A stretch of DNA of 63,322 nt, filler included, from Folioceros fuciformis (taxonomy: Eukaryota), in assembly GCA_049999805.1 (NCBI GenBank). It is 8 parts of 8 records of this genome, joined end to end, with 100 filler letters (N's around TTAATTAATTAA, not from the genome) between each part and the next. Parts side by side here need not be neighbours in the genome. Positions count along the whole stretch, not along the records: positions 28,974 to 36,216 come from JBNGIO010006029.1; 7 more parts are not named here. One strand, written 5' to 3'. A program made the translations under genes and the position numbers. The notes under the pieces are model-generated. The model worked only from the letters and a program-made list of their open reading frames with translations, had not been told where the DNA came from and did not search any database. Position 1 is the stretch's first letter. The number at the start of each line of letters is the position of its first letter. Positions 15,242 through 46,896 of the stretch are shown here, piece after piece.

Positions 15242-15341
15242 NNNNNNNNNNNNNNNNNNNNNNNNNNNNNNNNNNNNNNNNNNNNTTAATTAATTAANNN
15301 NNNNNNNNNNNNNNNNNNNNNNNNNNNNNNNNNNNNNNNNN

Positions 15342-16828: not shown

Positions 16829-16952
16829 GGTTGCTATATGAACAGTCACTTAGAAAGAATTTAAACGATTTTGTACTCTCATTTTATTGTTCTGTTTTAT
16901 GCTTTTGCTATTCTCTCGCGTCCTCTCATGTTTTGCACATGGTATCAAAGCC
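16829..16952 (+). promoter_or_regulatory. Remnant 5' LTR end plus tRNA-iMet PBS (TGGTATCAAAGCC, 16940-16952)
   Basis: …GCACA followed immediately by the canonical plant PBS. Confidence 0.85.
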
Positions 16953-16983: not shown

Positions 16984-17573
16984 ATGCAGAGAGTGGGTGG
17001 TTCAACTAGATGTCCGAGTCGTTGTGGGATCTCGAGACACTCCTAGCAAGCAAGACACCCACCAAGACAAACGGCACCGCCACAAATCAATATTGATACG
17101 GTGCTGAACATCTATGAATAGAACTACCCCACTCATTGGCTGCAGAGGCTTGCTGAATCACGTAGCAGAAGGGGAGCATCTGATTTTCATTTAAACAAAA
17201 ATCGAGAGGTTGATCACCTCTACAGAGAGCGTTGTTACAAGAGAGCCAAAACGCAACAGCCTACAACAACAAAGGCCAAAGTTAGCGTTAGCCCCTGCAC
17301 TGGATTTGGAAGAGGATTCGGCATGAGGATAGAATCTCTTCTAATTAGAGTTTAACAATTGCTATCATACGTAATTACAAACCAGGAATTATTGAAGAAC
17401 AGAGTTCCGACACGAAATCCTAAATTGAGCAAGCAGTCGCTGAGAGCACACAAGAAATCTCAAGAGACATCAATGACGTATATGATTTTCTGAAATTGAG
17501 TGACTTGAGGCTTCAGGAGCGAGAACAGGGCTGCCCTCATTCAGGATCAAGCTCGATTGTTCGAGCATTGTGA
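16984..17573 (+). pseudogene. Extra ORF between PBS and gag, copy 1, decayed
   Basis: Manual translation gives DTVLNIYE*NYPT, LLIRV*QLLSYVITNQELLKNR and QEISRDINDVYDFLKLSDLRLQEREQGCPHS, which align to the ORF at 33691-34281. Confidence 0.8.
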
Positions 17574-19536: not shown

Positions 19537-22378
19537 TGTTGAAAGATCGCTCCAGGAGCTACATGGTGAAGGAGGAGAGGAGGAGGCAAGGAGGAGAGGA
19601 GAAAAGAGAGGTCACACTCTCATAATAGAGTCTCTCGCTAGCAAGGGAGCTCAAAGGGGTATTTATACCCTCTAGAAGAGCTCCATAGGAAGCTTCACAA
19701 GAAGCGCGCAAGAAGCTGTGCAAGAAGCTTCCTGCAGATTAGCTTAACCTAATCTAAACTAATGATACTTAACTAGACACTAATCTTAGACTAAACGCAT
19801 TAGTCTAAGCACATTCAGCTTTAATAACCCTACAAGTCAATTATCCAATTAGAGAATAAGTGACTCTCCACGGCTGTCAGTTGTGCAACACAGATCAGAA
19901 GGAAGAAGAGATAAGAACATCTCCATCGTCAACAGAGTTCACATCATCATGCTTGTTACTCGGAGTTGCCTTGTCGCTCTACTTCTTCTCCTTTCCTTTA
20001 TCCTTCTTGAACTTCTCGCAGTCCTTCCTGATGTGACCCTTCTTGTGACAATGGTAACACTCAACATTGTTACGACTACGAGATTTGCTACGGGAAGAAC
20101 TTCGCTCCTTGTACTTCTCCTTTGAAGTGGACCTTTCTCTCACCATGAGGGCATTGGAACCTTTCGAAGGTTCCATATTCTTCCTGTTTACCTCCTATGT
20201 TAACAGGCTACCTTCTACATTTACAACGGTAAGACCACTAGCAGGAGCAAAATTACTCAGAGCTGTACGAAAGGTGTCCCAGCTCTCTGGTAATGTGACC
20301 AACAGAAACATAGCTCTCACGGAATCTGGGAACGAGATACCTGAAAATGAGATGAGAGCTGGCTGAAAATGAGATGAGAGCTGGCTGNNNNNNNNNNATG
20401 AGATGAGAGCTGGCTGAAAATGAGATGAGAGCTGGCTGAAAATGGTATTAAACTCATTCAGATGATCGGACATCCTCGTCCCTTCCTTCATCTTCTAGTC
20501 CACTAGCTGTTTCAACTAATACACCTGAGAAGCCGCACTTTGCTTTTCATATAGGTCACACAACTTCTGCCACAGCTCGAAACTTGTGGTCTTGTCTTTC
20601 ACGTTGAAGTAGACCGACTTGGACAATGTTAGCATGATGGTAGAGCTAGCAAGCTCATCTAGATCCTGCCACTCATCCTGAGTCATGCTAACGGGTTTCA
20701 CTCCTAGCAACTTGATGGGCTTGATCTGCTTCTTCTATACTAGAACATTATACACTTGTTCTTTCCAGAACGGGAAGTTAGTACCATCTACCTTCTCGAT
20801 ATTGAACATGACGTTTTCTGAGGACGCCATGTTTTAAAATCGATGCAAATGAAGCAAAAGGCTAGAAAACAGTTGGAATGTAATGTAGATTTTAAAAGTT
20901 ACCCTCACAACGAAACGGCTGTCCACAATTTAGTCTTTGGTCGTTCACAATTGGAATGTCTCCCGTCGTCTGATCGAGATCCTGACTTCCATGGTCGGGG
21001 GCAGTTCAGCGCCTGTTTGGCGCACTCGGTGCCCGGCCAGATCCTCGCCCACTGGCGCCCTGCTGGCGAACGGCTGCAGCCAGGGTGACACCTTGCTGGC
21101 GCCTTAGTGGCGCCCCACTCGTGCCTCGATGGCTCCCAATTGGCGCCTCGCTAGCGCCCGGGTGGCGCGCAGGTGGCGCCCCACTAACGCCCAAGTGGCG
21201 CCTCGTTGGCGCTTGGGAGGCACCCCAGTGGCGCTCGGGTGGTGCCTCGTTAGCTCGTAGGTGGCACCCCATTGGCGCTTCGTTGGCACCCAGGTGGCGC
21301 CTCGATGGCGCGCCCTAGCCGGCAGCTGCGCTCTAGCCATCGCCCTAGACATCGCCCTAGTCGGCGGCTGCGCCCTAGCCATCGTCCTAGCCAGTGGCTG
21401 CACCCTAGCTGGCGGCCTAGACGATGCCCTAGCCATCGCCCTAGCCAATGCCCTAGTCGCCGCTCTAGCCTACGCCCTAGCCCCAGCCAGCGCCGGCCTA
21501 GAGCCCTAATCGCCGCCCTAGCGGCCTGGCGCCCTAGTGCCCCTGGCCGGGGCTGGCTCCCCTAGCGCCCCCGATCGGGGAGGCCGAGGGTTGGTGCCTC
21601 GGCAGGGGGCCCGGTGCCCCGCGCAGCGGAGCGGCCGGGTCAGGTGCCCCCCCTGCTGGGGTCTGCTCGCTCTCCGCGGGCTGGTCGGGGCTGGACCAGC
21701 GCCCAGGGCCCCGGCACCCTGGCCGCGGCCTGCGACTGCGGCGGTCGAGGTTCTGACGGCACCCGGGGCTGGGGGGCCTTTCATCCGCCCCGCCTAGCGG
21801 CGCCTGCGCCCCGGGAGGCCTGGCGCCTCAGGTGCCCCGCTCACCGGGCGCCCTGCGCCTCTTTGCTGTGGCGCTTGGTGTGGATGGCGCCCTGGGGTAG
21901 AACCCCCTCGCGGTGCGGCAGCAACCTCCCGGTGCCTCGCGCTCTCGGCACCCCGAGCTCCAAGCTCCCTCACTCTCGGAGCCTCGTGCTCCTCCTAGAT
22001 GCCCTTCCTCACGGGCCTTTGTCCGTGGCACCTGCAAACATGAGCATCTCGCTTCACAATTTGAGCTTCACAACCTGCGCTTTGATACCAATTGAAAGAT
22101 CGCTCCAGGAGCTACATGGTGAAGGAGGAGAGGAGGAGGCAAGGAGGAGAGGAGAAAAGAGAGGCCACACTCTCACAATAGAGCCTTTCAATAGCAAGGG
22201 AGCTCAAAGGGGTATTTATACCCTCTAGAAGAGCTCCCTAGGAAGCTGCGCAAGAAGCTTCCTACATATTAGCTTAAGCTAATCTAAACTAATGACACTT
22301 AATTAAATACTAATCTTAGACTAAATGCATTAGTTTAAACGCATTAGTCTAAGCACATTGGGCTTTAATAACCCTACA
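19537..22378 (-). mobile_element. Nested gag-only Copia derivative with both family-A LTRs
   Basis: TSD CTAGG (19532-19536 / 22379-22383); LTRs 19537-19834 and ~22093-22378; PBS TGGTATCAAAGC 22079-22090; decayed gag ~19880-20830 with CYHCHKKGHIRKDC; no pol. Confidence 0.92.
21000..22030. repeat. GC-rich tandem-repeat leader (GGCGCC and CGCCCTAGCC units)
   Basis: Reiterated TGGCGCC motifs ~21015-21310 and (C)GCCCTAGC(C) motifs ~21310-21570, located between PBS and gag. Confidence 0.85.
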
Positions 22379-24595
22379 CTAGGTTAGGCCACATCAATAA
22401 AGCCAAGCTAATTGACATGCCTGTTACTAAATGCCAAAGAGAACCCTTGCCGAAGTGCTTCAAAGACTTACCTGTTTGTGAGTCTTGCATCTTGGCAAAG
22501 CAAAAGGAATCCCCATTTCCTATTGCCCCTGCACATAGAGCTATACAAGTGCTGGAATTAGTTCATGCTGATATATCTGGAAAGATACAAGAGCCGTCCT
22601 TAGGAGGATCTCATTATTTCTTCACCCTAATAGATGACTTCAGCAGATACACATGGACGTTCCCAATGCAGCTTACAAGTGATACCTTCAGCATTTTTAG
22701 AGACTAGCTCTTTACAGCTCAAAGACAATCTGGCATGCTTCTGAAAATACTAAGGATGGATAATGGATCGGAGTTTGTAAACTCATCTTTTGATGAGCTG
22801 CTCCAGGAACATCGCATCCTTCGCCAGCTAACAGTTCCCTACACACTACAACAGAAAGGTGTATGTGAGAGCAAAAATCAGACACTGCTCGGCATGACCA
22901 GAAGCATGCTCATTTGGGCAGGCTTACCACAAGGGTATTGGGCCGAGGCAATTGTAGCAGCCACATACATCTTGAACAGGGTTCTCACGAGCTCTGTCCC
23001 ACAAAAGACACCATATGAGGTGTTCTGGAACATGAGACCTAGCTTGTTACATCTAAGGGTATTTGGCTCATGTGCATTTGCATATATCCCCGTTGAAAAA
23101 CGAAGGAAGCTGGAACCTCGTGCTCAAGGACTGATTTTTGTCGGTTATAGTGAGCATGTGGAAGCCTATAAGCTGTACAACCTATCACAAGACTGTATGT
23201 TGCTTGCCCGAAGTGTGACTTTCGTGGAGCCTAATTCACCAGTTTCTAGTACAACACAAGGTGTTCTACCCATGACAGCAAATGACTATGACACCACATC
23301 AGCTGATCTTGCTGAATATCCCTTGGAAGACATGGAACTGGTTGATATTCCACCTATCATCCCTACAGCTGCTGTTGTTGAAGCACAGGAGCATGACCTG
23401 GAACCTACAGTGGACCTACAGGCCGACCACCAGTCAGATAACGATGCACAAGATGACGAAAACGAGAGAGTTGCTGCAGAACAAGATGATGGAGCTGAGG
23501 ACGATTTTTTGGTTGATGACTTACCTGTCCAAGATCATGAGGGGGCTGAAGCTGCAGACCTAGCTGATGACCTGGACCTGTTTGTCAATGAACCAGTAGA
23601 GGACCCACCTGCACCTACCTTTGAACCTAGACGATCAACTCGCTATCGTCCACCTCCTTTCGAATGGGCAAAGCCTAGATACCAATCTGTGGACTTTAGG
23701 ACCAACCTCGCCTTTAAGACCACTTTGCCGGATGAGCCCACTAGCCTACAGCTGGCCTTCAATGGGCCTGAATCTAAACAATGAAAAGCTGCTGTCGAGG
23801 ATGAGTACCAGTCTGTTGTGAAAAATAAGACCTGGATCCTGACAAATCTACCACCAGGGCGCAAGGCCATCTCCTGCAAGTGGATTTTCAAACTTAAGTT
23901 AAATGCCAAGGGTGAGGTGGCTAGATTCAAAGCTAGATTGGTTGCACGAGGGTTCATGCATGTGGAATGCGGGTTTTTGGCAAGTACCCGCAGTAGGTAG
24001 GGAGCGGCTAATAACATTTTCAGTTTTGTTTGGTCTTGGTTTGGTAGGTTAGATGAGTGGCAATAATAAGGGGTAGAATTGTAAAGAAGTTACCTTCTTT
24101 TGGATGGCTACCTATAGGGAAGTATGGCCACATAGGGAGGATATCTATGTGGGAGGTAGTACCTAAATAACAAATATAGTTGTGAAGGGCAAGCTACCTA
24201 CAGAAAAGGGGACACCTGTGTAGAGTATCTATTAAGGGTAGTTACTACATATAGAAGTATACCTACGACAAGAGGGTATTTAAAGGGGTCCCTACGTAAG
24301 GTGTCCCATCAACGAAGGGTGCTCACCTCCACGTAGGGAACTACATCTACCTACATAGCGGGGAACTAGGAAGTAGCTGTGTGACAAGACACCTATGTTG
24401 GGGACCTACTTGTTGTGACCAAGCGGACACAGAGCAAGAGAAAGGGCTTTGCTATGGTGAGAGCCATAGGGAGGAACGATGCAGGGGACGTGAAATCAAC
24501 TCGACAGAAGCTGGGAGCAGTTGCCTATGGAGGTAGGGGTATAAACTTGCGTAAAGGAGGGCAATCGACGTTCCTGGGGTCTTGTTCCATCAACT

Positions 24596-27126
24596 ATGGC
24601 ACGGACCTCCAACAACACTCAAGTGGCTTCCGGCAGTAGGGGACGACCCCCGAGGGCAGCTAGCTCTCCCCGAACCAATGTTCCGTCCTTTTCCTGCTTT
24701 GGGGGCCAACTGAACTCAAGGGATTTGATAGACCTACGGACTTCGGCATGTGACGCAAACATCCAGCTTGACTGGATATATGGTAGACACTGGTCGTATG
24801 TTCATGAAGGCTTGGTGCAGGAGGGCTATACCAACCTACAGCAATCGAAGGAGGAGTTGGAAGCCCTACCTAAACGAAGCGCGAGGACTGACCCTCGTTG
24901 TTGGACTGTCTAGAGCATCCGACAAGTGTACGGTAGGTCAGAAGAGGAGAGCGATGGTATTGGGATCCTGGGGCACTAGAATTGCTGTTGGGAGGGGAGC
25001 TAGCAAGAACTAAGATGATCAAGGATCTCAAATGGCGGTTGTTCACTAAGGTGGTTCTTGGATTGGTGAACTATCAACGCACCTCATATTTCAGCAATGC
25101 TTTCCTCCACTTCCTTTGGAGAGTGACTCAAGGAGCAAAGCTAGACAAGGGGTTAATTATGTATGAGGCGTATACCTACCACGGGGAGAAGTTGCTCAAG
25201 CTGAACAGTAGGGAGGGGGGAGTGCACTTCCCTGCTACCTATCGACTTACTTGGTGCACTTATGGAAGACAAAAGGGTTGTTAACACTAGAGGAGTTGGA
25301 GGAGGCGGAACAACCTTTTGTAGTTGTCCCATTGCAAGGGAAGGCTTTTATTTCCGATGGAGTGTCGACCCCTCTTACGAATGAGGAGTCCCCACTTGAT
25401 TCTGAATCAACCATGGCAGCCTATGATGAGTCTGATGAAGATGACACCCCATTGATACGGAGACCCAGGGAGCAGCAAAGGGACCGAAGGCTACCATCAG
25501 TCACCACCCCCACAGCCCTAGATTCCACCCCAACTGAGATGGAGTCAGTGAGGGATCTTGGACCAAGCCAGCCAATAGTTGAAGTAGGGTACCAGGTAGG
25601 GTATTTGGCGATGACACCAGTAGTGCAAGCACAGAGTGGAGCACCAAATTTGGGGAGAAGGAGCCCAATGAAATGGGAGGCAGCCCGGGGAGCACATGCC
25701 ACGAGCCAAGGTAATGACACTTCATTGGGAGTGTGGAGCAACATCATTCGGTGTGGCCAACAGCTACAAAACATCAATTGGGGAGAGGCCCGTGTAATGA
25801 TTGCAGCCCTACTACAGAAGGACATAAGCCGGGATGCAAACTAGGCACGACTAGAATCCAAAGTGCAGGAATTGGAAAAGGAGCGAGAACAATATCTCCT
25901 CAAGGATGGTGAGCAAAGGCAAGCACTGGAGAAGTTGACCCAGCAGGTGAGCACGTTGTAGACTTCCCAACAAGGTTTATCACATGAGATCATTGCATGT
26001 CGAAGGGACCTCGCCCAGTCTGAGGAAACTAGGAAGGTGGTGGAGGAACAGCTACGGGAACAAGTCTACCTTGCAAAGGATTTACAAGGCAAGCTAGATG
26101 AGTTGGAGGCACAGAATGCTAAAGTGAACTAGGAACTCCAGCAGCGCCTTGAAGCAGGGCAAGGAGAGCGAGTGGAGAGGGAACAATTGACCATCCAATT
26201 AGAAGTCCTTCGGCAGGAGAAAGCACAACAAGAAGCTGAGCACCAGACCAAGATTCACAAGATGCTAGTGGTTCGAGCTCGTAGGTTTCGTGCTGACTAT
26301 GCCTACTTGACGGGGTGCATGACCAAGCTTCATGCAACTCATCAAGAAGACCTTGACCTACAGTTGAAGGTAGGGCCGATGGAGGTTGAATGGGATATCT
26401 ACAAGAGTAGATGCGAAGGTGGGGATTGGGTTGTTGACATGGATACCATAGATCTAGCTCAACAGAATCGCAACCTCCACCGACACCAACGTCTACTCGC
26501 TCATCTTAAGGAACTGGTAGCATTGGTAAGGCGAAGGTATCTTGGGCCACATGATGACGACCGTGAGGCCTTGGAGACAGTGCCCCTTGTCAATAGGATC
26601 GACTCCAGTCTACGTGCAAGTGTAGGAGAGGAGAGGAGAGAAGAGAGGGTGGTATTGGTGATCACAACCATGAAAACAATACACATCACCACTGTCTTAC
26701 TATGGAGGTCCGAGGTCTCCATTTAAGTAGTACATTTAGGGCTACACAACTTCCAGGTTCAATATGGGATAATCTACACTATCCTAAGTTCACTAATAAC
26801 TAGAACTAGTCTAGTATGAACCCAACTAGGATAACTAACACCACATGAGTTTAGCTCATATAGAGCTTGATAACTCAACACCCCTACCAACAGACTTTCA
26901 AGAGAGCAGCAGTATGGACCTAGAGAGCTCGCAATGGGAACCTGAGGAGCTGCTATGGGCTAGGAAGAGCACGCAACAAGGGGTAACTACTCTCGTACGG
27001 AACCTACCTACGAGAGGAGGGGAAGGAATGGTAGGGACCCTACCTACGGAGGGAGCAACAGGTACCCTACCTATGGAGGGAACATTTCCACCCTATGTAG
27101 GGAAGGAGCCTCAAGTTGAGGAATAA
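24596..27126 (+). pseudogene. Accessory ORF, ~740 codons after removing the nested LTR; conserved N-domain, acidic linker, coiled-coil-like region
   Basis: Collinear ORF pieces at 24596, 24982, 25251, 26172 and 26886-27126; SYFSNAFLHFLWRVTQGAKLDKGLIMYE aligns with 15342-16235. Confidence 0.78.
26588..26880 (-). mobile_element. Solo LTR (293 bp)
   Basis: TG..CA with TSD CCCCT (26583-26587 / 26881-26885); shares GTTCAATATGGGATAATCTACACTATCCTAAG with the LTRs at 54980 and 60360. Confidence 0.88.
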
Positions 27127-28602
27127 GGGGATCCCTGCCCTACCAAACTTGTAGGTGGTGGTGAAGGGATAGCCCAAGAGAACCATACAGAGGATGGTAC
27201 GGTGAAAGCTTGTGGATCCAAAAGAAGGCGAATCCCAATAATGGAGGGGGGCCCAGTGGCTCAGCCTTCAGACTCGGCCTCCCTTCAGGAGCCATCCTAA
27301 CCACACCTTTTTGAAAAGGGGGTCAACAATTCTTCTATGGCAGCACCGACAGTCCTAATCTTCATCGGCTCGCACTGCCCTAGCAATTATTGGTAGGACT
27401 TAGCCTCTTGGTAGGTATGCGTAGTTAAAGCTGGCCGCGGCTAGTGGTAGGTAGGAAGCCGTCTGCCATCCTATATAAGTAGAATGAAGAACTTGAGCCA
27501 GAGGGCCCCGTTCTTTGATTGTAAGTGTTTCGTGACGAATATAGAACCAATTTTCATAAGCCTGCGTGGACATCCTGGCAGAAGGAGGAGCTGCGAGTGC
27601 CCTTTCTGTTGCCGATCACAAAGGTCCTTGTGATGTCTGGTTGGGAGTCTGGAACGTAGGGAAACACGGAGTTGGATTATGTAGAAGGTGTTGTGAGGAG
27701 ACTTGTGGGGAAAGGTGCTGGGTGTAGGTAATTGGAAGTTGGTAGGGGGAGGTACTTGGGCCCTTCCAAGTGAAGGAATGGTGCCTTCCTACTGACTGGA
27801 GGTGTTGAAGGTATGCGCTAGGGAAGGTTGAATGTCGAGGGTGAGCAATAAACACAGTTGGAGAGAGCGGAGCAGGCTCGGAGGAAAACTTGGTCGCTGG
27901 GTGTAGGGAGACGAGCAGCTAGATTGTGGGTAGAGGAAGGTGTTGTAGGGAGCCTTATGAGGAAAAGGTATTGAGTGTAGGGAGGTAGAAATCGGTAGGG
28001 CCTCCAGAGGTACTGGGGCCCTTGTAAGTGAAGGAATGGTGCCTACCTACTGACGGGACGTGTTGTAGGATTGGTAGGTACGTGGTTGGGAGAGTTGACT
28101 ATTGTAGGGGAGCGATAGACGTAGCTGACCAGGCTTAGAGGGGAGCGATTCCGGGGAAGCCTACAACGACCGTGGGATTGATGTGGCCATAATACATGTG
28201 AGTGGGTGCCTGGTAGGGATACCACACCCGCTTGCCCACAATGCAAGTTGAGGGTTTGGACTACCAAGAAACATTCTCACCTGTCATGAGAACAGAATCC
28301 ATTCGAATCCTCCTTGCTTATGCCACAGAACATGACCTTGATCTACACCAAATGGATGTTTGCACAACGTTCTTGTATGGAGCCTTAGATGAGGAGCTTT
28401 ACATGCTCCAGCCTAAAGCTTATGAAGACCCTGCACACCCAAACAAAGTGCTCAAGCTCTTGAAGTGTATATACGGCTTGAAATAGAGTGGGAGAGTGTG
28501 GTATTTAACCACGCATCTCTACTTAATCAACATCGACTTTGTGCAAAGTGTAGCAGATATGAATGTCTACAGGCTTACTCGTGGCTCTTCTCTTGTCCTC
28601 CT

Positions 28603-28803
28603 TGACAATCATCAGATGCGATGTAGTCACGGTAGTAGGCCCAAAGATAGTTGAATACATTATGGCAGTTACACACTCCGGTGTCATGTGTACGCGATGG
28701 ACGGTTATTGCCGTTACTAGGTCACTTAACCTAAGACCTGTACGCCTATCTATATATGTATAGTTAGATATTTATATATATATACCTATTCTCACTCCCA
28801 CTT
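28603..28803 (-). repeat. 3' LTR plus PPT of another element interrupting the host RT
   Basis: TGACAA..TTCTCA (28603-28794) followed by CTCCCACTT (PPT complement); host RT breaks just before its YVDD motif. Confidence 0.7.
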
Positions 28804-29019
28804 TGGTTTTCAAGGTTAGTGGGTGCTAGGTTATAGAGTCTGTATGTATGTTAGCTAAGAAACGAAACGCGAGNNNNNNNNNNNNNNNNNNNNNNNNNNN
28901 NNNNNNNNNNNNNNNNNTTAATTAATTAANNNNNNNNNNNNNNNNNNNNNNNNNNNNNNNNNNNNNNNNNNNNAATTCGATTCTCAATTCTTTCCTACGC
29001 TATCGATCCTATTTACGCT

Positions 29020-32000
29020 AGAGCACAAGAGTGGGCTTCTCCTGAGGTTGTCCCAAGTCCTAGAGGAAGCTGCATTCCCACTCGGCCTCTTTTGCTGCTT
29101 TTGTTAAGGATTTATACTTGGCTTCAGAGGAACTGAAAGCAACAGACACTTGTTTTTTACAGCTCCATGTAACAGCTGCTGAGCCCAATAGATAGCAATA
29201 TGTGGAGAGACTCCTACGTGCGTCTGAATCTAAGGCCTAGTCATCATCTGTGAAGCCTCTCAGAACAAGTTTTTTTTGCCCTATGCTCTTGTACATGAGT
29301 CCATATTTATGCGTTCCTCTGCGATAACGGAATATCCTTTTTATAGCTGCCTAGTGTACCCTAGCAGGACTTTCCAGAAACTGCGAGACTATACTAACAG
29401 CATATTGTATGTCAAGCCAAGTCCAGTTCGCAACGAATATCAGAGACCCAACAGCATGCTGGTAAGGTATATTCTGCATATCCAGTTTTTCAGCCTGTGA
29501 TTGTGAGCACTGATTCCTAGTCAACATTGTGCCAACAGCATAAGGAGTGGCAGCTAGCCTGGCCTCATCGAGGTGGAACTTCTTGAGTATTTCATTTATG
29601 TATTTGTACTCATGGATAAATGGTAGTCCTTCTTCCCTTACACGAAGTAGTTGGATTCCCAAACAAAATTTCAGCTCCCCTATGTCTTTCATGTCGAATC
29701 TGGTGCTGAGTTTGTCCATCACACTTGCTAACAGTTTTTGATCGTTTGTGGCAAATATAACGTCATCCACATACAATGCTAGGATGACGATTGATGCTCC
29801 TTGAGTGAGCTTGTACACATTGCTATCAACTGCATTTTGGACGAAGTCAATACTGAGCACATATAAGTGCATTATAATGTACCATACACACCCGCTTTGT
29901 TTAAGGCCATATATGCATTTCAAAAGCTTTAACACTTGGTTAGGATGCTGCTTGTCTTCGTAGGCTTCAGGCTGCAACATATAGATCTCCTCTTTGAGAG
30001 TACCATACAAAAAGGCAGTACAGACATCCATCTGTTGCAGATCAAGATCAAACTTAGTGGCATATGCAAGGAGAATTCTAATGGACTGTGTACGAACAAC
30101 AGGCGAGAAGGTCTCTTGATAATCGAGGCCTTCCACTTGGGTAAACCCAAGAGCCACGAGCCTTGCTTTATATCGGGCCACTTGTCCAAGTGCATAGAGC
30201 TTGATTTTAAAAACCCACTTGCAGCTAATGGCCTTCCTTCTAGGTGGGAGGTCTGCAAGTACCCATGTCTCGTTTTGAATGAGAGACTGGTACTCGTCTT
30301 GCACTGCAGCCTTCCACTGTTCACTCTGTGGACCACTGAAGGCCTGTTGTAGAGTGGTAGGCTCCTCTGGAACTTCCGAACTTGCTGCAGTCAAGACAGC
30401 AGCTTTGGCAAAAGAGGTTTGCTAAAAGTCAATAGATTGGTAACGGGGCTCTGCCCATTGATCAGGAGATGGCATGTGACGTGCAGAGCATCTAAGTATA
30501 GGCTCTTGTTCAGGTGGCTCATATGTAGGGGCTATGTCATATGGAGTATTATGTCCGTGTGCAGTGTCCCCCTCTTGGTCTGAAATGGGGGTAGTTTCCC
30601 CCTCGTGAATGGGGAAATGGTTATTGTCCAAAGCATAAGGCTGATCGTCTTGCAGGCTCAAGTTATGTTCAGGTTCACCATCAGGCACACCAGGTGCTAC
30701 TGGTGGAAGGTCTGCCAACACGGCATCATCGCCATGCTCGTCAAGAAGATCATTGAAAGTTTGAGGATCAGCAGGATCCATATCATCGAGAGGGTAAGAG
30801 GCTAGGGCTCCATGTGTTGCATCTATTTCCAATGGATCTGGACATTCTTCTTCAACAGTGTGTTGATCCTGCGATTGAGTTGGAAATGGCTGTGTGGCAG
30901 GAGTCCTAGGCTCAAGAAAGGTGACACTCCGAGCAAGGAGGATGGCACCAGTCTTAGAACTATAAAGCTTGTAGGCTTTTGTTCTTTCACTATAGCCGAC
31001 AAAAAGTAATCCCTGTGCTCGGGGATCCAATTTCTTTCTTTTCTCAACAGGTATGTAGCCAAAAGCTTGTGCTCCAAAAACTCGCAGATGTAGGAGGCTT
31101 GGCTTCTTATGCTAGAACACCTCGTATGGCGTCTTCTGTGGGACAGAGCTTGTTAATACCCTATTCAAAATATATGTAGCTGTCACCACAGCTTCTGCCC
31201 AGTATCCTTGAGGCAACCCTGCCCAGATGAGCATACTGCGCATCATACCAAGTAGGGTTTGATTTTTCCTTTCTGATACTCTGTTCTGCTGTGGTGTGTA
31301 GGGTATAGTAAGCTGCCTTAGCACTCCATGTTCCTGAAGGAAGTCATCAAATGTGACATTGATGAATTCTGTCCCATTATCAGACCTAAGTATTTTTAAC
31401 AATTTTCCAGATTGCCTTTGAGTAACGTAGAACCAGTCTCGGAAAAAGTTAAAAGTGTCACTCTTCAAACGCAGGGGGAAAGTCCAGGTATATCTATTGT
31501 AATCATCCGTTAGGGTGAAGAAGTATTGAGAACCCCCTAGGGAAGGCACATGAATTTTTCCCGAGATACCTGCGTGCACTAACTCAAGAACCTGAGTTGC
31601 TTTGTGTGCAGCTGCTTTAGGAAAGGGAGATTCCTTTTGCTTTGCCAAGATGCAAGACTCACATACAGGTAAGTTTTTGAAGCACTTTGGTAATGGTTCC
31701 CTGTGGCATTCAGTGATAGACATATCAATCAACTTTCCTCTGTTCACATGTCCTAATCTTGCGTGCCACAACACCGCCTTCTGCTCAGCAGTGAGCAAGG
31801 GAGTAGTAGTGGAATGAGCTACATGCTTATTAGTTACCATATGTGTACAGACAATATCCAAGCGATATAACGAGTTATCAAGGATGCCTCTGAAGACACA
31901 TATGTAAGGAAGTGACTTCTTGTAGAACGAGCAATGTTGGGAGTCAGCCACCATTGTGAAGGTACCTAGATGCATAAGCTGGCTCATAGACAAGAGGTTC

Positions 32001-33247
32001 TTTGCCACGCTAGGCACGAAAAGAACATCTTCTAGTATTAGGTTTGTGTGATCGTGTAACCTGAACACACGCTGACCCTTTCCTTCTATATGCAGGCTAG
32101 TCTTGGATTGCTCACCACCTAAAAAGACCTTGTCATGGACATGAGCAAGGTTGAGGGAAGTAAACAATTCCCTCCTTTTACATATGTGCGTGGTAGCTCC
32201 AGAGTCAAAGTACCAACTCTCTTAAACATATGTAGAACTTGACAAACATATGGTGAGGATCTTGACTGGTGCCTTTTCAACAGGTTTGTCCCTCACTGCA
32301 ACACTTGCAGCAGGCTTTGCCTGTTTTTGGGGCTCACCAAATTTACGTTTGCGGCACTCACGTGCTCAGTGGCCAGGGATGCCACACCAGTTGCATGTGC
32401 CTGGTCGTTTTGAATTTGAAAATTCAGTCCTATACGTGGGCTGTCCTCGGGAAGTGCCCCCTCTGAATTTGCCCTTTCCTTTAGGGCGAAAATTCACAGC
32501 TAATGCCCGTTCTCCTTTATATTGTTTGTGCAAGCCGGCTGATGTTAGTCGGGTCTGCTCTTCTTGGTAAAGAGCTCCTATTATGTCTTCCATTGTAATA
32601 GCAGTTGTCTGAGTTCCTCCTAATGCAAAAGCTGCTACAGGGCCATTCTGATAGCTTGTGACAAAAGATTGATAGGAGGGTGGCAGACTAGTAAGTAGCT
32701 GGGAAATAGCTTCAGACTCTGTCATCTGTGTTTTGGTGATAGATTAAATCTGAGCTCGAAAGTGACGAAATTTGCTGGTATGTACAGCCATTTTGTCACC
32801 CTCTTTCATACGCAGTATATAGAACTCCATACGTACTACTGACAGTGTGGCCATCGTGGTTGTGTGATAGGTTTTCTCCAACTGGTTCCAGATATCCTTT
32901 GCCAATGTGAGAAATTCCACATTGGGAATAAGGGCAGCATCCAGCCCATTGACGATGACAGCCATCGCTACACCATTATTGTGCTCCCATTTGGCATATT
33001 CGTCAGGTTTGGTTTGTGGGTCAGGTTTCTTGAAAGAACCATCAACACTGGCCCATACACCTCGAGCTATGAGGATTGTCCTCATTCACACTCGCCAGAT
33101 AGAATAACCGGTACCTTTAAACCTATCCTTATCTTTGACAGCAGAACTGGAAGAAACATGGGTTGCCATGTTTGTGTTGAATGCAGGCTGCAAATTGAGG
33201 TTGTTGAAACTATTTATCAACGCATTGAATTGTGAGGTTGTGGTTAT
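29020..33247 (-). mobile_element. Copia gag-pol (family B), decayed
   Basis: ORF pieces 32744-33085, 32366-32725, 31112-32167, 30422-31030 and 29351-30394 with knuckle, WYFDSGAT, WHARLGH, RSDNG and YVDD. Confidence 0.95.
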
Positions 33248-33690
33248 AAGGTACTTATGGCATCAGGAACTATGGTTTCTGATGAACAGGTAAGTACACT
33301 TATACCTACACTAAATGGATAACTAGTGTAGTTTCAAGGAACTTGATGAAACTAACCACTAAGGAGTGCTATAGGGATCAGCAAGGAAGAACCAGCAACA
33401 AGGGTACAAAGCCCTGTACACACTGACCTCCTAAGCATGCCATTCAAGTCTACAGTGACTAGGTACATCAAAACCCTAAAACTTAATGATATTTCATATT
33501 CAAGAAAACTTGCTCAAGGACAAAACCCTAACCGTCGTGTCTTGTCCATGTGAAATGACAAGTTAGGTACACCAATCACAAAGCTACATGAAAGTTTGAT
33601 GGAGGAGATGCAAGTAAGAAGGCACCGCTTCAGATCTGAATAGGTATTGCTTCCTGCTACTCTCGCTCCGCTCCTTTGCAGCGGAAGGAT

Positions 33691-34294
33691 TCATGGCGCT
33701 ATGAGATCTGATACAGAATGAGAACATCCAACCTCCAAACTTCGCAACTTAGCATCCATTAACCTCAGAAGATCAGCAACTTCGTTGATGTCTTTCTGGA
33801 TGTCCTGCTTGCATTTGGTGATGGATTGCTCAGTATCAGAATCCAAACTATCCAGTCTGTCTTTGAAGACCTTTTGATTGGAGATGGCAAGGGAGAGTGC
33901 TTTCTCCACCTTGAATAAAAGAACTTGTGTCTCATGAACAATAATTTCTTGTAATTTGATGGCGTTTCTAATATATATTTGCTTTGGCTGTGATACAGAG
34001 TGCCGAGCAGGTGGTAATCCCTCAGCTCTGAGGTCACGCTCACAATTAAAGTGTAATATGACCAAAGGGTCAGATGATCCAGATGCCTCCAGTGGATCAG
34101 GGTTTTGCCCCCTCCCCACACAGCGCTCGATATAGGGGCAATTTGTTAGCCGAATAGTAGGGTAGCTATATTCATAGAGGTCCAGTACTGAATTACTTGG
34201 TAAAGGTGTTGAATATCTTGGTGGACGTCCTCCATGACGAAATTGTCTCAGGTCCACCACAACAAGGACCTCTAGAGCCACCCTGCCTCGGCAT
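33691..34294 (-). CDS. Extra ORF between PBS and gag, copy 2; unknown protein with coiled-coil-like C-terminus
   Basis: 196-aa open frame 33691-34281; probable true ATG at 34294 (MPRQGGS.., like MQRVGGS.. in copy 1) with an early frameshift. Confidence 0.75.
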
Positions 34295-34327
34295 ATTGTT
34301 CAAGCCTCATTGATAAAGCAAAAGCAT

Positions 34328-34475
34328 GGCTCTGATACCATGAGTAAAACGAGCGTAAGCGAGAGTATGCAAACAAATTTCATAAGAAATAATTAGTTAC
34401 AATCTTAGTGTCAAAAATATTTAAATACTGTCTATGTGCCTTTTGGCTAGACAACCTTAACCCGGTAACCTAATC
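34328..34475 (-). promoter_or_regulatory. PBS TGGTATCAGAGCC (34328-34340) and short 5' LTR (34341 to ~34475)
   Basis: Canonical tRNA-iMet PBS abutting the …TACTCA LTR end; outer LTR boundary tentative. Confidence 0.75.
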
Positions 34476-35889
34476 ATAATAAAATGTGCGTTAGGTTTAA
34501 CTTCCATCCTAGCATAGTATTGCCTAGAGATAACTCCAAAAGTAGCATCCAATTGCTAGCCCGTAAGAATACCAAAAGCAAAAGACACACCTTCTCCATA
34601 CAACAAGTTTGCAGAGTGCAAGTCTCCAACAATCGCTGTTTCTCCACTTCCTTTGCACGCAACGATAGAAAACTTGGTTCTCTCTGCCATGTGCAGTGCA
34701 AGTTTTCCCTTTATCTCCTCCACCTCCTTCTCAACTTGCGCCGGAAACTGGCAAAGTTTCTCATCAGTGAACTTGTGGGTCTTTGTGAGATTCCACTTGC
34801 ACTTAAGCAAAGATTGTTTGCCACTGTCCAAAGCCTCTTGTGCCTCAGCGCCACATGTGCCTTCAGCCTCCTCTGCTTCTTCTCTCGCTTTTCTTTCCTA
34901 CCCTATTTCAACACCTTGTCTAAGCTCCTCTTGAATTGACGGTTTTATAACTGTCAACAACGTGCTCATAGGCTCCTCACCAGTGTTGCTCTCTTCCTAT
35001 CAGGAGGAACTATATTCAAGCAACTACGTGCTCCCAAACCTTGAAACAAGTATCACACCCTCACACACTACGCTGCCCAAAGATTCTATTTGCTCCATTG
35101 TTGGCTCACCCACGAGCGCTTCTTCCTCCTCCACCTCGTTCGCTGTTGAAGGTGGGCCCACACTCACTTCCTGGCTGATTTTGATTGCTCCTCTATCTCC
35201 CCTATTGAAAATGCACTCGTGCCCATGCATGCTCCCTTTCTTGGTGGTTTTGGCTCCCCATCAAACTTCTCTGCTGGGAGCGCACTCGCACTCACATTCA
35301 GTTCCCTTCCTGTTAATTTTGACTCCTCCTCAAGTTTTGTTTTTGCTGGAAATGCGCTCACACCCATGTTTGCTCCCTTTCTTGTTGCCTCCTCTGCCCT
35401 TTCTTGATCGTGTCATTTGGTAAGAAGAACGCCTACTACCTCTCCCTCACATGGCTTGCCCGTGCTTGCTCCCCCACGTACTTGCAGATCCGATCCTCCC
35501 AACCCTTGTCCTCTGAAAGGGTCTTTTCTCCTCTTGACCTTTGTCTTCCACTTCTCCACCCCTTTGATCACTTGTGCATCCAACACCTCCTTAGACCTTT
35601 CTTGGATTGAATTGCCTCTTGCTCCTAGACCCTACAAGTGGCCAAGCCCCAAAGGTGGAGGAAGAACGGGCGTCCCACAAATGTGAGTTACAACATCCTT
35701 CAACCACTCGAAGACAAGGTTAGTGTTCTCCTTGAGCTACTCCAACTCAGCAGGTTGCTCCTGTTATTGTTGAAGAAGCTAAGCCTTGGTAAGCCTGTGC
35801 GCTGACGAACCTTGGAGCTATCTTTGACGCGCCCACCAGCTTGAGCCCTAGAAGACCTTGCAGAGCTTGCCTTGTCCTTCCTCTTGCCT

Positions 35890-36216: not shown

Positions 36217-37477
36217 NNNNNNNNNNNNNNNNNNNNNNNNNNNNNNNNNNNNNNNNNNNNTTAATTAATTAANNNNNNNNNNNNNNNNNNNNNNNNNNNN
36301 NNNNNNNNNNNNNNNNGCGTGCACCGCTTATGCCACGAGCAATCCATCACCTCATCTGTAGAGCACAACTTGTTTAGTTAAGGACCTCACATCACCTGTG
36401 CAACTATACCTAGATGAAGCATCACTAGACAGCAAATCAGGTTAGCAGCAAGTCATTGACACGCACCTTTTTAGGCAGTAGCTAGGTGCACTCAGCTTTG
36501 AAGGCGAGAAGGAGCTCCACATCTGTCATGGATGTTCTATCATGGAATTCAGGCAGTTCCCTTTTTCCCTAGTTGTAGCGCGCACACCTCTCCCCTCACC
36601 TGGGCGCTCTTTGGTTTTCACGGATCTGCCACAGATGGGTGTGTTATGCGCCACGTTTTTGGCGGTGTCAGGATCAAGGGAGCAGGTATAACAGCGAGGA
36701 TAAGCTCAAATACGTGGACAACAAGCTTTAGGTTTGAGCTCCAAGCCATCGCTCGTCTAGATCAGGCGCAGCCCTATTACCCGAATCCGCCGTTGCCATG
36801 TACTAGCAACAAATCACAACCATGGAACAGTCCAGGGACATTAGTGAGACTGTAAGTGGACAGGGTTGATTGCTCAACGTCTCTCTGCTCAACTTCACTA
36901 GCTTGGACAGCTCACACTTGGCATTTCACTACTAGCACGGATAGCTCACACTTGGCGTTTTATGTTTTCTATTCATATGGTTCTATTTAGCATTACTCAA
37001 TATTATCGAGTTAGGTATGAGAGAGGATATTAAGATATATTTGTTTAAATATCTTTACAGCCCTAACTGGATAGGGATTGAAATCTCAGTTATTAGATAA
37101 ATACTTTTAGGGTTCTTCCACACCAAAAATGGTTACAACACTCTCTTGTTTATAAGACACTTTCTTGACTATAAGGTATATACTCTTCGTGCATTGTTGT
37201 CTCCTCTCGACTTGTGTCTGGTCGTGTGCAGGTAGATTTGTTTTACGAAGATCTGTCCACAAGTCGCAAGTGGTGACCTGAACCGTTGGAGGGTAGGAGT
37301 GATAGTCCTAACCTGTCTACAGTTGGCAGCGTCGAAAGTTGAGTAGTACCTATGACCAGAGTAAAAGGCTTGAGATAGGATCGAGAGGAGGGTTTACAGA
37401 AGAAAGGATGGATTTTTGATGAGGACTGTGTGGCCGCTTTAAAGTTGCGGGGACGCCGCTTGATGGCGTCCCGTGAC

Positions 37478-40783: not shown

Positions 40784-42107
40784 NNNNNNNNNNNNNNNNN
40801 NNNNNNNNNNNNNNNNNNNNNNNNNNNTTAATTAATTAANNNNNNNNNNNNNNNNNNNNNNNNNNNNNNNNNNNNNNNNNNNNTTTGGTAAGGGCGAATC
40901 CAATGGCCTTGAATTTTGTTGACCAGCTACGGAAGTGCATAGTATGTTGGTCGACGAAATCTCCCTCTTGCGTGCGCAGGCCGAAGAAGTGTGTACGGTG
41001 TGCATAATATTATATCGTGCAATTGCTGCTAGGCAGCTGCTGCAGTGTTTGTGTTTTTGATTTGTTGGACATTCCCATGACGCATAGCCTGGATGATCAC
41101 GTTGTGTGCTTGTTGATTGGCGTCTTCCCAGTCCTCCTTTTCTTTTGCTGTTCCGTTGCTTGGGTAGGCTATGGGAACAGGGGGGTTGCTGACAAAATAA
41201 AATAATGCAGCATAAAATCATATAAACACTCTCATGATATTAATTGTATATATTCAGTTCCAAAAGAAAGTTACTATATATGCTTGTCCTTCATCTATAT
41301 TTTTGTTACATGTAGCTGACCTTAAATATTGCCATGACCTAAAAAAAAACCAAAAGACACACCCCTTTAATTTCTTAGCGAGTATCGGTTTATTTTATAC
41401 ACGCTTTCACACTCCCTCTTAAACCAAAACGAGCGGTGTACCACGGATGAGAAGCTTGCCATTACTGCCCAGCTACTCCACAAGTGGAAATAATCACTGC
41501 GTTCTCATCGTGAGCGCGATGGTGCCAAGGCACTGGCTTCCACTAGAAATACCGGCTGCTATCAAGATGTTTAGCGAAGGCGCGCATCTTCACGAGCATC
41601 AAGATGACAACCAAGAGCGAGGAACGTTCTCATGCCAAGGGCAACCATCACGGCAAAAAACGGGCAGTGAGGGAGGAGGAGCCTGCAAGTCCAAACCTTG
41701 TAGTGCGGCTATCACAGTTGCTGCAATCAGGTACGCCATCACCAAAGAAAAAAAAAAATTCCAGCTACAGTTGTTCCACAATAGGTGATTAAATATCTAG
41801 CTTCAGCTTCATCCACGTGCTGTGGAAAATCAGTCTATGCCATGGTCCCAACATGGCTTTCTGCTTCATGTGTAATTATGCTCACAAAATGGTGTCTTGT
41901 GTCACAAAAAAAAAAAACAATGATGCCGGGCCTTCATCCAAAAACAATTTCCAGGGCACGACTTCAAGTCCTTGTGACACACTGCTCTCAAGAACAAAAG
42001 TAGGCACCATGTCTTTTTCTGCTCTTGTACTCCCTATGCTCTACGGCTTGTAAATCATTTGGATAGCTTCTATATAACAAAACCAGCTGGCTGGGCTCAG
42101 GGAAGGA

Positions 42108-45100
42108 CTAGGTGCTGTGAAAATAACTGTAAAAATTAATCAGGCCTAGGCCCTCCATGTGCTGATAGTGTTTAGCCTTGGGAAGGCCTTTAGTTAATAT
42201 GTCAGCTGTGTTATCATCAGTGGGAACATAACCCACTGAAGCTATTTTCCTTTCAACCACATCTCTAATATAATGGTGCTGGATTTCGATGTGTTTGGTT
42301 CTGGCATGATATTTAGGATGAACAACTAAATCAAGGGCGGACATGTTGTCACATAATAGGGAAGTAGGTTCTTCTTGGCATTGTCCCAAATCAGCAAGAA
42401 AGGTTCGTTCCCATTCCAGTTCCTTTGAAGCTTCTGTTAGGCTCTTGTATTCTGCCTCAGTTGATGACAAAGCAACTGAGGCTTGTTTCTTACTGCTCCA
42501 GCTGACAGCAGCAGAGGAGAGCAAGAAGCAATAAGCAGAGAGGCTTCGTCTTGAGTCATTGTCTGATGCCCAATCGGCATCTGTAAAACTTGTAAGGGTA
42601 AGTCGGCCTGTTCCTGTTGATTTATATGCTAAACCATAAAACTCTGTTCCCTTCAGATACCTAAGCACCCTCTTGGTTGCTATCCAGTGCACCCGACCAG
42701 GGTTTTCAAGAAATTGTGATAATGTACTAATTGCATATTGTATATCAGGGCGCGTCCAGTTTGCGATAAATAGAAGGCTTCCTACAGCCTGTCTATATGG
42801 GACTGTCGCCATCTCCTTAATTTCATCATGTCCTTGTGGACACTGCAGACTGGTGAGTTTAGTCCCTAAAGCTAAGGGGGTTATTGCTGGACGTGCTTGT
42901 TCTAACTTGAAACGTATCAGCATCTCTTGTATATACTGGTATTGATGTATAATTAATAGCCCTTCAGATCTGACTCTAAGTAATTGAATACCAAGACAGA
43001 ATTTGAACTCGCCAATATCTTTCATTTCAAATTTGCTACTAAGCATTTCCTTTACATGTGCTAATAATGACTGATTATTTNNNNNNNNNNNNNNNNNNNN
43101 NNNNNNNNNNNNNNNNNNNNNNNNNNNNNNNNNNNNNNNNNNNNNNNNNNNNNNNNNNNNNNNNNNNNNNNNNNNNNNNNGCCATGTACAGGTCTTCGTC
43201 CAAAGCACCGTAAAGATAAGCTGTACATACATCCATTTGCTGTAGATCGAGGTCAAACTCAGCAGCCAGTGCGAGTATCATCCTTATGGACTGCGCTCTA
43301 ACAACAGGAGAAAATGTTTCCTGGTAGTCCAAACCCTCAACTTGAGTAAAACCTCGTGCTACGAGCCTTGCCTTGTACCTTGCTATTTCACCTTTAGCGT
43401 TCAATTTCAGTTTAAAAACCCACTTACAGGATATTGGTTTCCTTCCTTTGGGCAGGTCAACAAGGGTCCAAGTGTTATTTTTGACGAGCGAATTGTATTC
43501 ATCGTCAACAACAAATTTCCACTTATCTTTCTCAGGTCCTGAATAAGCTTCTGTAAGTGTCTTGGGCTCCAGATGAATTGTGCTAGAAGCTGAATTACAT
43601 ATTTCAGCATATGATGTTCGAAAATCAATTGAATTATATCTTGGTTCCCTCCACTGTTCAGGAGGGGGTCTGTGTCGAGTAGAACGTCTCAAAGGGGGAT
43701 CTGGATCCGTATCGGGAGTGGCTTGCATGGGTTGAGGTAAATCCTGCACTTCATTTTCTGGAAATAACTCCTCTCCCTCTGCAGCTGGAACTCCCTCTGC
43801 GGCTAGAGCAGGAGCATTATCCTCAAGATGATCTTGGTGTTCTACTGCAGGTGGTATGGGTGCAGCAATTTCCTCATCAGGAGGTTGCTGAATGTCTTGA
43901 TTATCCCGCAGAGATGTCAGGACAAGGGTGGAGTCGTCATCATTAGCATCATCAGAGGGATAAGTAGCATCAGCAGGATCTGCAGCGGAAGTAGAAAAAG
44001 GTATTTCTCCTGAGGGCGTGTGATGTAGCAACTGATCTGAAAAAGTTGGTTGTGTAGTCTCAAGAAATGTAACAGAACGTGCTAACACCGCTCTCTTATT
44101 TACAGGGTCATACAGTTTGTATGCCTTGGATTGCTCGCTATAGCCCAAAAAAATTAGGGCTTGGGCTCGAGGATCCAATTTACGACGTTTCTTCCCCGGA
44201 ACGAGAGCAAAAGCCCTTGAGCCAAATACTCGAAGGTGAAGTAAACTTGGCTTACGACGCCACATGGCTTCATATGGAGTCTGAGAAGTGAGTGAACTGG
44301 TAAACAATCTATTTAAGATGTAAGTTGCAGAAACAATTGCTTCGGCCCAGAAGGTCTGTGGCAATCCAGCCCACAACAACATACTTCTGGTCATAGCAAG
44401 TAATGTCTGATTTTTCCTTTCGCCAACTCCGTTTTGTTGAGGGGTATAGGGAACAGTGAGCTGACGTTGAATCCCACGTTCCTGCAGGTAGGAATCAAAT
44501 GCGTCACTCACAAATTCTGTCCCGTTATCAGAGCGGAGACATTTAAGTTGTTTGCTAGTCTGTCATTCTACCATCTGCAACCAGTCTTGAAAAATTGTGA
44601 AGGTGTCATTTTTCAGGTGCAATGGATAAGTCCATGTATATCTGGAGAAATCATCGGTAATACATAGGTAATAAATTGCTCCCCCTAGTGAAGCAACCTG
44701 AATTTTCCCAGAAATATCAGCATGGACCAGTTCTAAAACTTCTGTAGCACGATAGGATGCTGTTGATGGGAATGGTTGTTCTTTTTGCTTGGCCATTATA
44801 CAGGCTTCACAGGTAGGCATCTCCTTGAAGACTTGAGGTAACCTTTCCTCATGGCAATCTTGTAAAGACATATCCAATAACTTACGTTTATTGATGTGTC
44901 CTAATCTTGCATGCCACATGACAGCAAGTTGCGCAGATTGCTTGGAAACAGCAGCAGCCTTGTGCTGAATAGTAGAGACGTCTAATTTGTACAGGCCATG
45001 TTCTAGCACACCTTTGAACACTGGAAAGCCAGGTTTAAGTGTGTGATAGAAGATACAAACCCTTTCAGTGGCTTGCATCTCATATTTACTTGTCTGCATG

Positions 45101-46386
45101 AGTTTGCTTAAGGAAAATAGGTTCTTAGCCATGGATGGGACATAAAGTACATCCTCCAAGGTAAGCATAGAACCATCATGCAACATAAATTTGCAAGTAC
45201 CACTACCCTGTACAGATAGACTAGTCCTGTTTGTTTCATCACCCAACAGGACCCTCTCATTTGTGTATGCAGAAGTAAATTCATAGAACTGGTTTTTATT
45301 TTTGTAGATGTGTGAAGTCGCTCCAGAATCTAAATACCAATTATCCTCTGGAGGAAAAATATGGGCCGAACAAACTGTAAGGATCTTCACTATTGGTTTG
45401 GTGTCACCTTGAGTTTTAGGTTTGGCTGATACAGTTGCTACAGTCTTTTGTACACGTTGTTGCTCACCTGCTTTTTTCTTTCTGCAGTCTCTTGCCCAAT
45501 GCCCTGCAACTCCACACCAGTGACAGTTACCAGGGCGTTTTGTTAATGTAGAAGGTCGACTGTTAGAACTGGTAGACATCTTCCCTTTGCCTTTAAAAAA
45601 TCTTTGATTAACTGCTAGTATTTTTTCAGATTTACTCTTAGGAGTACCCTGTGAGAATACACGGCTTTGCTCCTCCTGGTACAGAGCCCCAATCACGTCT
45701 TCTAACGTGATTGTACTTGTACTTCCAGAGGCTGCTGAAGCACTAGCCTGGCGTATCGGGCCATTCTGGCTAGTTACAAAAGACTGGTACGATGGGGGAA
45801 GTCTCGTTAACAACTCTGCCACAGCATCAACTTCAGACATTGAAATGCCTGTCAAGGAAGTTATCTGTGCCTTCAGGGTCCTGAATTTACTGGTAAATAC
45901 AGCAACCCTGTCTCCTTCTTTCATTCGAAGATTATAGAATTCATGTTTGAGAGCGCATAATGTCAAAACATTCTTGACCTGGTATGTCCTCTTAAGCTGA
46001 TCCCATATGTCCGATGCATTTGTTAGGAACTCCACTTCAGGTACTAAATCAGCATCCAGTCCTGCTACTAGGAGAGCGACTGCAATGCCATTCAATTCCT
46101 CCCATTCTGCTATTTTCTCAGCTGTTGGGGCAGGTACCATATTTGGGTCTGGTTTCTTGTATGTACCATTCACTATACTCCAGACATGTCTAGCAGTCAA
46201 TGTGGCTTTCATACATATCCGCCAAACAGGGTATTTGGTACCGTTGAAACGGTCTTTTTCTTTCAGTTCTGAAGTGTAGGTTGCCTTAGGTGTACTTGCC
46301 ATATTAATAGATGCAATTGGATTCAGTGTCAAGCTTTGTCAGCTGTGAATGACAGAATCTAACGCATTTATGAATCCAGTGGTCAT
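42108..46386 (-). mobile_element. Nearly intact Copia gag-pol (family B)
   Basis: ORFs 44563-46332 and 43075-44511 are in frame across one TGA; RT/RNase H continues across the 100-N gap to 42108; PPT complement CTCCCTCTT at 41412-41420 with an AT-rich LTR-like block to its left. Confidence 0.95.
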
Positions 46387-46896
46387 AAAGCTTAGGACAA
46401 ATACAACTAGAAACTATGGTTCCTAATCTTTCGGATGTTCTAGTCTATCAGCAGGTTTCTAGGGAAAACATTCATTGGAGGGGTCAGGCTGGTGAGAGAA
46501 CGGCTCACAGGAGCCTCGACCTCAACTTCCTGACCTTCTCACTGAATTTTACCCCTNNNNNNNNNNNNNNNNNNNNNNNNNNNNNNNNNNNNNNNNNNNN
46601 TTAATTAATTAANNNNNNNNNNNNNNNNNNNNNNNNNNNNNNNNNNNNNNNNNNNNACCCTATGGCCTGGTACCGAACCTAAACCTTCCCAGGTCTGGGA
46701 CCAAACCTATACCCACTCTTATAACCAAACCAACTATTTCCTAGTCAATTAACCTAATTAGCACAAAGAAAATAGGAAAAATGACCAGAAAATCAAGGAA
46801 AATTAGGGAAAATAAGGTTAAAAAGAAAACCAAACCATACCACTATTAACCCTTTTTCAACCAAAACAAACTACTACCCCAAACTTTGGAGGTTCA

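Follow-up and report, generated by a model that had tools for sequence, protein, structure and literature searches.

In Folioceros fuciformis, we found that two diverged copies of a Ty1/copia retrotransposon share a sense-strand region, located between the PBS and gag, that has the remains of an open reading frame (ORF) of about 200 codons. According to the explanation that we favor, to which we assign a probability of roughly 0.6, the common ancestor of the two copies carried a real ORF at this location, the C-terminal, helical part of its product was under selection, and both copies are now dead. In the copy referred to below as copy B, the frame lies on the minus strand at positions 33691–34299 and comprises 202 codons from stop to stop plus a TGA. 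Its broken homolog in copy A lies on the plus strand at 16984–17573. This is probably a lineage-specific 5' accessory ORF of a Ty1/copia lineage.

The window, that is, the whole stretch of 63,322 nt analyzed here, is composed of eight short unplaced contigs chained by seven identical 100-nt linkers (44 N, TTAATTAATTAA, 44 N; positions 8508–8607, 15242–15341, 28874–28973, 36217–36316, 40784–40883, 46557–46656 and 60584–60683). As these linkers are artificial, neighboring elements of the window are not physically linked. Copy A is found on the plus strand of the contig at 15342–28873 and copy B on the minus strand of the contig at 28974–36216. We detected no LTR pair in copy A or in copy B; both contigs stop within the element, that of copy B at 28974 and short of the 3' end, so that the LTR pairs are undefined.

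Both loci belong to Ty1/copia, as an earlier note on this DNA had proposed. Pfam matches to gag, PR, INT and RT follow the Copia order of gag, protease, integrase and reverse transcriptase, with INT before RT, and the two copies are colinear. In copy B, gag (32222–33169, minus strand) begins with ATGGCA at 33169 and contains a full-length Retrotran_gag_2 match (33085–32744, E=8e-22). The adjoining pol (29351–32221, minus strand) runs for 2.9 kb in a single frame, interrupted by in-frame stops at 31112 and 30422, and presents Pfam matches to Pol_BBD (protease), gag_pre-integrs and rve (32221–31115), SH3_retrovirus (31111–30425) and RVT_2 (30421–29354, E=2.2e-64). The gag-pol region of copy A spans 18123–28603 on the plus strand and contains nested insertions at about 19539–22345 and about 23970–28240. 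The latter, of ~4.3 kb, is deduced from the split RT of copy A, the two pieces of which (23710–23967 and 28244–28603) match contiguous parts of the copy B RT; it displays positive GC skew and AT skew. The former is a small LTR element nested in minus-strand orientation. Its direct repeats of ~170–280 nt are located at 19539–19815 and 22092–22345, with a third related copy at 5329–5605, a PBS-like TGGTATCAAAGC is found at 22090, and its GC-rich, low-complexity interior includes a gag-like fragment (20195–20491) and a 10-N gap.

Copies A and B are 62–77% identical in gag-pol at the amino-acid level. In the true gag-pol frames pS is 0.70–0.85, pN 0.15–0.23 and pN/pS 0.18–0.48; given this saturation of synonymous sites, the two copies are old relatives and not recent duplicates. 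Across the 844 gag-pol codons that could be aligned, ~5 in-frame stops occur in each copy, a density similar in A and B. In copy B, gag has an in-frame TGA at 33086–33088 where copy A has CGA, with more breaks further downstream. We also observed an ATA at 33245–33247 (minus strand) of copy B at the site of an upstream ATG of copy A and of a more distant relative, copy C. The changes leading to TGA and ATA are both of the transition type, as expected from decay of methylated DNA, and transitions also predominate among other genomic copies. The ATGGCA start of gag is unchanged across all three copies A, B and C.

Upstream of gag, the two copies carry the same Ty1/copia PBS motif preceded by CA. 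In copy B it reads TGGTATCAGAGCC (34328–34340, minus strand), directly after the ...CA end of the LTR as located by motif search and sequence inspection, and in copy A it reads TGGTATCAAAGCC (16940–16952, plus strand; motif search). The motif is of the type that complements the 3' end of plant initiator tRNA-Met. An ATG is present at homologous positions in both copies, 46 nt from the PBS start in copy B (34292–34294, minus strand) and 44 nt in copy A (16984), in agreement with the distance of ~45 bp originally described. The ATG of copy A shares its frame with the homologous peptide blocks. That of copy B opens a frame of 33 codons instead of the long frame, from which it is separated after codon 15 by a 2-nt break at 34249–34250 (minus strand), where copy B is 2 nt shorter than copy A. 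The span initially assigned to the ORF (33691–34294) needs correction on this point: it measures 604 nt, which is not a multiple of three, and its ATG at 34294 is out of the long frame (34299–33691), in which no in-frame ATG occurs before codon 181. In two DNA runs, X1 and X2, the shortening is absent from contigs carrying 20.9 of 32.1 and 16.2 of 26.2 of the depth, respectively (~65% and 62%). Since neither copy A nor the majority of the depth shows the 2-nt difference, copy B appears as a frameshifted version of the frame begun at the conserved ATG.

The openness of the copy B frame is unusual. When the 1080-nt leader of copy B was shuffled 5000 times with its dinucleotides preserved, a stop-free frame of at least 202 codons arose only twice, and the remaining five frames over the ORF span have 6–16 stops each. 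This bears on a rather unlikely alternative, in which the leader is a long 5' untranslated region with cis-acting RNA or DNA signals (tRNA-primer contacts, dimerisation/packaging, translation control), the open frame of copy B is due to chance and the similar peptides reflect nothing more than nucleotide conservation. While the shuffles and the conserved positions of start and stop in A and B argue against such a leader, it is in keeping with copy A, which has no long frame. The homologous path through copy A is interrupted by three in-frame stops (17044–17046, 17119–17121 and 17353–17355) and by one 1-nt frameshift between 17398 and 17427, and its longest open stretch of 78 codons is ordinary, being reached in 3108 of 5000 shuffles. 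The earlier proposal of a ~200-codon ORF in each copy consequently stands for copy B, with its 202 stop-free codons, and falls for copy A. Considering the stop density of gag-pol, one break in copy B or four in copy A per ~200 codons is compatible with post-insertion decay. Judging by their sequences, both window copies are dead, and their ORFs broke at rates comparable to the decay of their own gag-pol.

A similar picture was obtained from insertions and deletions. The stop of copy A at 17571–17573 is homologous in position to that of copy B, with a 6-nt in-frame indel directly upstream. We determined net A/B length differences between a few hand-picked sequence anchors of the two leaders. 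Within the ORF they amount to +5 (3+2), +6, −30, −1 and +6, all multiples of three save the two identified frameshifts and inclusive of an unalignable middle section of ~240 nt. For the spacer that separates gag from the ORF stop, they are +4, +5, +5 and +2, none of them a multiple of three. Small as these numbers are, such a contrast is what a coding frame beside a non-coding spacer predicts, and it counts against an untranslated leader. We conclude that the ORF predates the split of A and B, which are by now saturated at synonymous sites.

The strongest signs of protein coding come from the C-terminal half (33694–33996, minus strand), with the proviso that all A/B comparisons of the ORF rest on two copies, both broken. 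The three pairs of peptides quoted as similar when the ORF was first noticed are present as written in copies A and B. Aligned by tblastn, the two products are 45% identical in a C-terminal stretch of 44 aa and 24% identical in a gapped alignment of 139 aa; for a search of the window, the sum E is 2e-9. In the C-terminal block (60 codons, B 33870–33691), 87 differences are distributed 27/22/38 over codon positions 1/2/3, a third-position excess with P=0.0035. By the Nei-Gojobori count, the open frame of this block has a pS of 0.85, a pN of 0.40 and a pN/pS of 0.46, compared with 0.83 and 1.00 when the block is read in its remaining frames. Column permutation produced a ratio that low in only 2 of 2000 cases. 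The value of 0.46 falls within the range of less conserved parts of gag (0.45–0.48). When codon usage was modeled on gag-pol of the two copies, leaving out stop codons, the C-terminal half scored as gag-pol-like at 0.192 bits per codon, a score reached in 0 of 2000 shuffles, and its GC content at codon positions 1/2/3 (0.55/0.38/0.40) resembles that of pol (0.54/0.37/0.43). The third-position excess, the low pN/pS restricted to the open frame and the codon usage are all difficult to reconcile with a non-coding leader. What such a leader would account for is the tblastx score of the antisense strand in the C-terminal block, which at 40.5 bits against 51 in the sense frame means that much of the similarity is visible at the DNA level. 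Taken together, these comparisons indicate that the C-terminal ~60–100 codons evolved under purifying selection on the protein.

This signature of purifying selection was seen in the C-terminal block only. The N-terminal half (33997–34299, minus strand) is open and carries no codon-usage signal (−0.064; reached in 1145 of 2000 shuffles). Its first ~150 nt, up to about 34150, match copy A at 66–69% identity, and their differences fall evenly on the three codon positions (12/9/12 and 6/3/5), without codon periodicity. This even spread points to conservation of the nucleic acid beside the PBS, not of a protein, and it is one of the observations in favor of an untranslated leader. Past ~150 nt, the N-terminal half is unalignable to copy A and the frame is kept (net −30 nt). 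The suggestion that the ORF is selected is therefore borne out for its C-terminal part, by the 27/22/38 pattern, the pN/pS of 0.46 and the gag-pol-like codons, and not for its N-terminal half. No tandem repeats were found in the ORF span, and an Rfam search of it returned a chance-level match only (E=0.62).

The spacer between the ORF stop and gag (33170–33690, minus strand) contains short conserved islands and no long frame; since these islands lie outside the frame, they too are in line with a non-coding leader. Its length is 521 nt if counted to the ATGGCA start of gag and about 440 nt if counted to a conserved stretch upstream of it, consistent with the ~450 bp reported before. We also considered whether the frame could be an upstream exon of gag, with an intron removing the stop and the ~0.5-kb spacer to yield an N-terminally extended Gag. 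The frame shares its strand with gag and lies ~0.5 kb away from it, among plant LTR retrotransposons Ogre is known to be spliced (Neumann et al. 2019, PMC6317226), and a 14-nt block conserved between A and B and ending in ...CATAG lies ~100 nt before the ATGGCA at 33169. Against this arrangement, we could see by eye no shared donor-like GT near the end of the frame (TCTGTATCA in B, TCAGGATCA in A), the stop codon is conserved in position, the 14-nt block is missing in the more distant copy C, and gag has its own invariant ATG along with its full-length Retrotran_gag_2 match. We consider a spliced gag exon very improbable.

Searches for relatives of the ORF product were negative. No match was found among 279 candidate proteins of near length (111–354 aa) or, at E<=0.001, among 1.84 billion representatives; Pfam returned a single sub-threshold hit, DUF7625 (E=0.068), the best PDB match had an E of 0.21, and scores against the Atlas were 0.80–0.88, with low recognition. 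With the ORF or a 113-aa piece of gag as query, scans of metagenomes gave pattern matches, none of which was confirmed by tblastn. The lack of homologs is weak evidence, as the element's own pol has no close database relative either: among the best 120 matches from a search of 5.8 billion proteins, the closest relative of its RT was 54% identical. By this measure, the retrotransposon family itself is missing from protein databases. An AlphaFold2 model of the ORF product, made with no alignment, had a mean pLDDT of 43, with residues 1–130 below 50 and two long helices at residues 116–151 and 157–190 (pLDDT 54–74). The structure prediction recommended for this protein thus gave a low-confidence model; at these scores the coiled coil suggested earlier is not borne out. 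Homodimer prediction for residues 105–202 (score 0.01, mark 0.32) speaks neither for nor against binding. The missing homolog and the missing confident fold would both suit a non-coding leader.

The same searches bear on another origin of the frame, in which the ancestor of A and B transduced part of a host gene or of a different mobile element; the captured piece would originally have encoded a cellular protein and then persisted under fading constraint, having no role in the element. Gene capture by plant LTR retrotransposons is documented (PMC7264820), and both the restriction of coding signatures to the C-terminal half and the broken state of copies A and B would fit a captured sequence. 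However, no cellular or mobile-element homolog emerged from the 1.84 billion representatives or from Pfam. The frame also occupies the same place in two copies with saturated gag-pol synonymous sites, and the signal of purifying selection spans the A/B divergence, that is, a time when the sequence resided in the element. Furthermore, transduced ORFs are described as usually present in one or few copies (PMC7264820), whereas the leader is found in 151 X1 contigs. Altogether, we judge such a capture improbable.

The leader occurs in many diverged contigs of this genome, which in X1 are 80–100% alike. We inspected 40 of the 665 letter differences and 12 of the 54 indels among genomic copies. Among these indels, a frame-breaking +1 at 34093 is present in 2 X1 contigs, and the changes inspected include joints skipping 13, 76 and 113 nt. 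One abundant genomic variant does not align across 33687–34275. No contigs over this region came from run X4, presumed to be RNA, a result that has no bearing on expression. Over 32700–34700, a further run, X3, departs from X1 and X2 in showing almost exclusively C>T (97) and G>A (100) differences; it resembles a bisulfite-type library made from the same sample, and its variants were left out of the copy-variant evidence.

Extra ORFs of plant LTR retrotransposons are already well known as a class, and their 5' position is unusual for Copia. To our knowledge, they are the least understood part of these elements, with thousands catalogued and almost none with a known function. They occur upstream or downstream of gag-pol, mostly between pol and the 3' LTR (PMC7264820). 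The 5' sense ORFs described in Ogre (PMC2533021), Retrosat2 (PMC4093653) and Tekay (PMC11728184) are all from Ty3/gypsy, while the SIRE type of Copia has a 3' env-like ORF (PMC4093653, PMC6317226); the account of Ogre and SIRE given when the present ORF was first noticed agrees with these reports (PMC2533021, PMC4093653, PMC11728184). Extra ORFs of at least 250 codons have also been counted in 582 Ty1/copia elements, sorted into 45 similarity groups and classed by position and orientation (Neumann et al. 2019, PMC6317226). The suggestion of a possibly undescribed Copia architecture is not established. At least in its main text, that survey characterizes no Copia lineage by a 5' forward ORF and discusses only the 3' ORF of SIRE. 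Our literature search retrieved no description of any Copia lineage in which an ORF between PBS and gag is conserved, which does not prove that none exists. The ORF described here resembles the eORF-5'F class of the survey in being upstream of the polyprotein, forward and free of tandem repeats, but with 202 codons it is shorter than the 250 that define the class, and an ORF of ~200 codons would escape the survey owing to this cut-off.

The closest likeness is to Ogre ORF1 and to ORF0 ("5' aORF") of Tekay and Retrosat2, which are also extra sense ORFs between the PBS and gag and whose proteins are, according to these reports, likewise lineage-restricted and without an assigned function. The 5' aORF protein of sunflower Tekay is described as mostly disordered with few well-predicted helices (PMC11728184), and our model looks similar. 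In contrast, the hosts of the Ogre and Tekay ORFs are Ty3/gypsy elements, with RT before INT, whereas the host here is Ty1/copia, with INT before RT, Retrotran_gag_2 and RVT_2. Furthermore, the ORF here has ~200 codons as opposed to 400–509 in the 5' ORFs of Ogre, Tekay and Retrosat2. Ogre ORFs often include a plant mobile domain, whereas the ORF here has no Pfam domain above threshold and no similarity to the Pfam families named for Ogre and Retand ORFs. The env-like ORF of SIRE (Sirevirus) is, like the present one, an extra ORF of Copia, highly divergent and without an assigned function (PMC6317226, PMC4093653), but it is larger and located between pol and the 3' LTR; the ORF here is 5' of gag, and the 3' regions are missing from our contigs.

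If the preferred reading of an ancestral 5' ORF holds, the ORF would start at the conserved ATG ~45 nt past the PBS and end ~0.5 kb before gag, and in its product, an N-terminal half that is disordered and enriched in Pro, Gly and basic residues may precede a C-terminal pair of long helices. The ORF would presumably be translated from full-length element RNA as the first long cistron, in which case gag-pol would depend on splicing, internal initiation or a second transcript, and the first ~150 nt of the frame may double as a nucleotide-level cis element adjoining the PBS. By analogy with functions proposed for Tekay 5' ORFs (PMC11728184), we speculate that the protein could act on the element's own life cycle, in RNA or virus-like particle binding or packaging, or by countering silencing.

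A broader and more tentative proposal is that a conserved 5' accessory gene is a regular part of a Ty1/copia lineage in a poorly sampled plant group, with a bicistronic RNA, and an independent counterpart of the Ogre and Tekay arrangement. With a bicistronic genomic RNA, expression of gag-pol would require splicing or internal initiation. Equally tentative is the idea that the small protein, half disordered and half helical, is a new element-encoded factor, for example in RNA or particle handling or in silencing evasion. A protein-constrained 5' ORF in a Copia lineage, if true, would mean that this architecture arose more than once, and its ~200-aa product would be a short, tractable candidate for asking what such proteins do. 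A further question is how gag-pol, downstream of so long a cistron, comes to be translated. The weight of these considerations is limited by evidence that comes from two dead copies and an orphan protein.

Other Copia elements are present in the window. Copy C (42381–46212, minus strand), with gag from 46212, is a more distant relative with an amino-acid identity to copy B of 54% in gag, 55% in PR-INT and 62–66% in RT; its contig stops 344 nt upstream of gag, short of the expected ORF position. In the 1.4 kb upstream of a distant Copia at 61862–60696 we found no similarity to the ORF, the only tblastn match being on the opposite strand (E=4.2). Finally, a compact Copia element (54979–60583, minus strand) has gag, PR-INT and RT matches at 59512–56186 and is flanked by repeats at 54979–55213 and 60359–60583 that are 97% identical and 5.4 kb apart.
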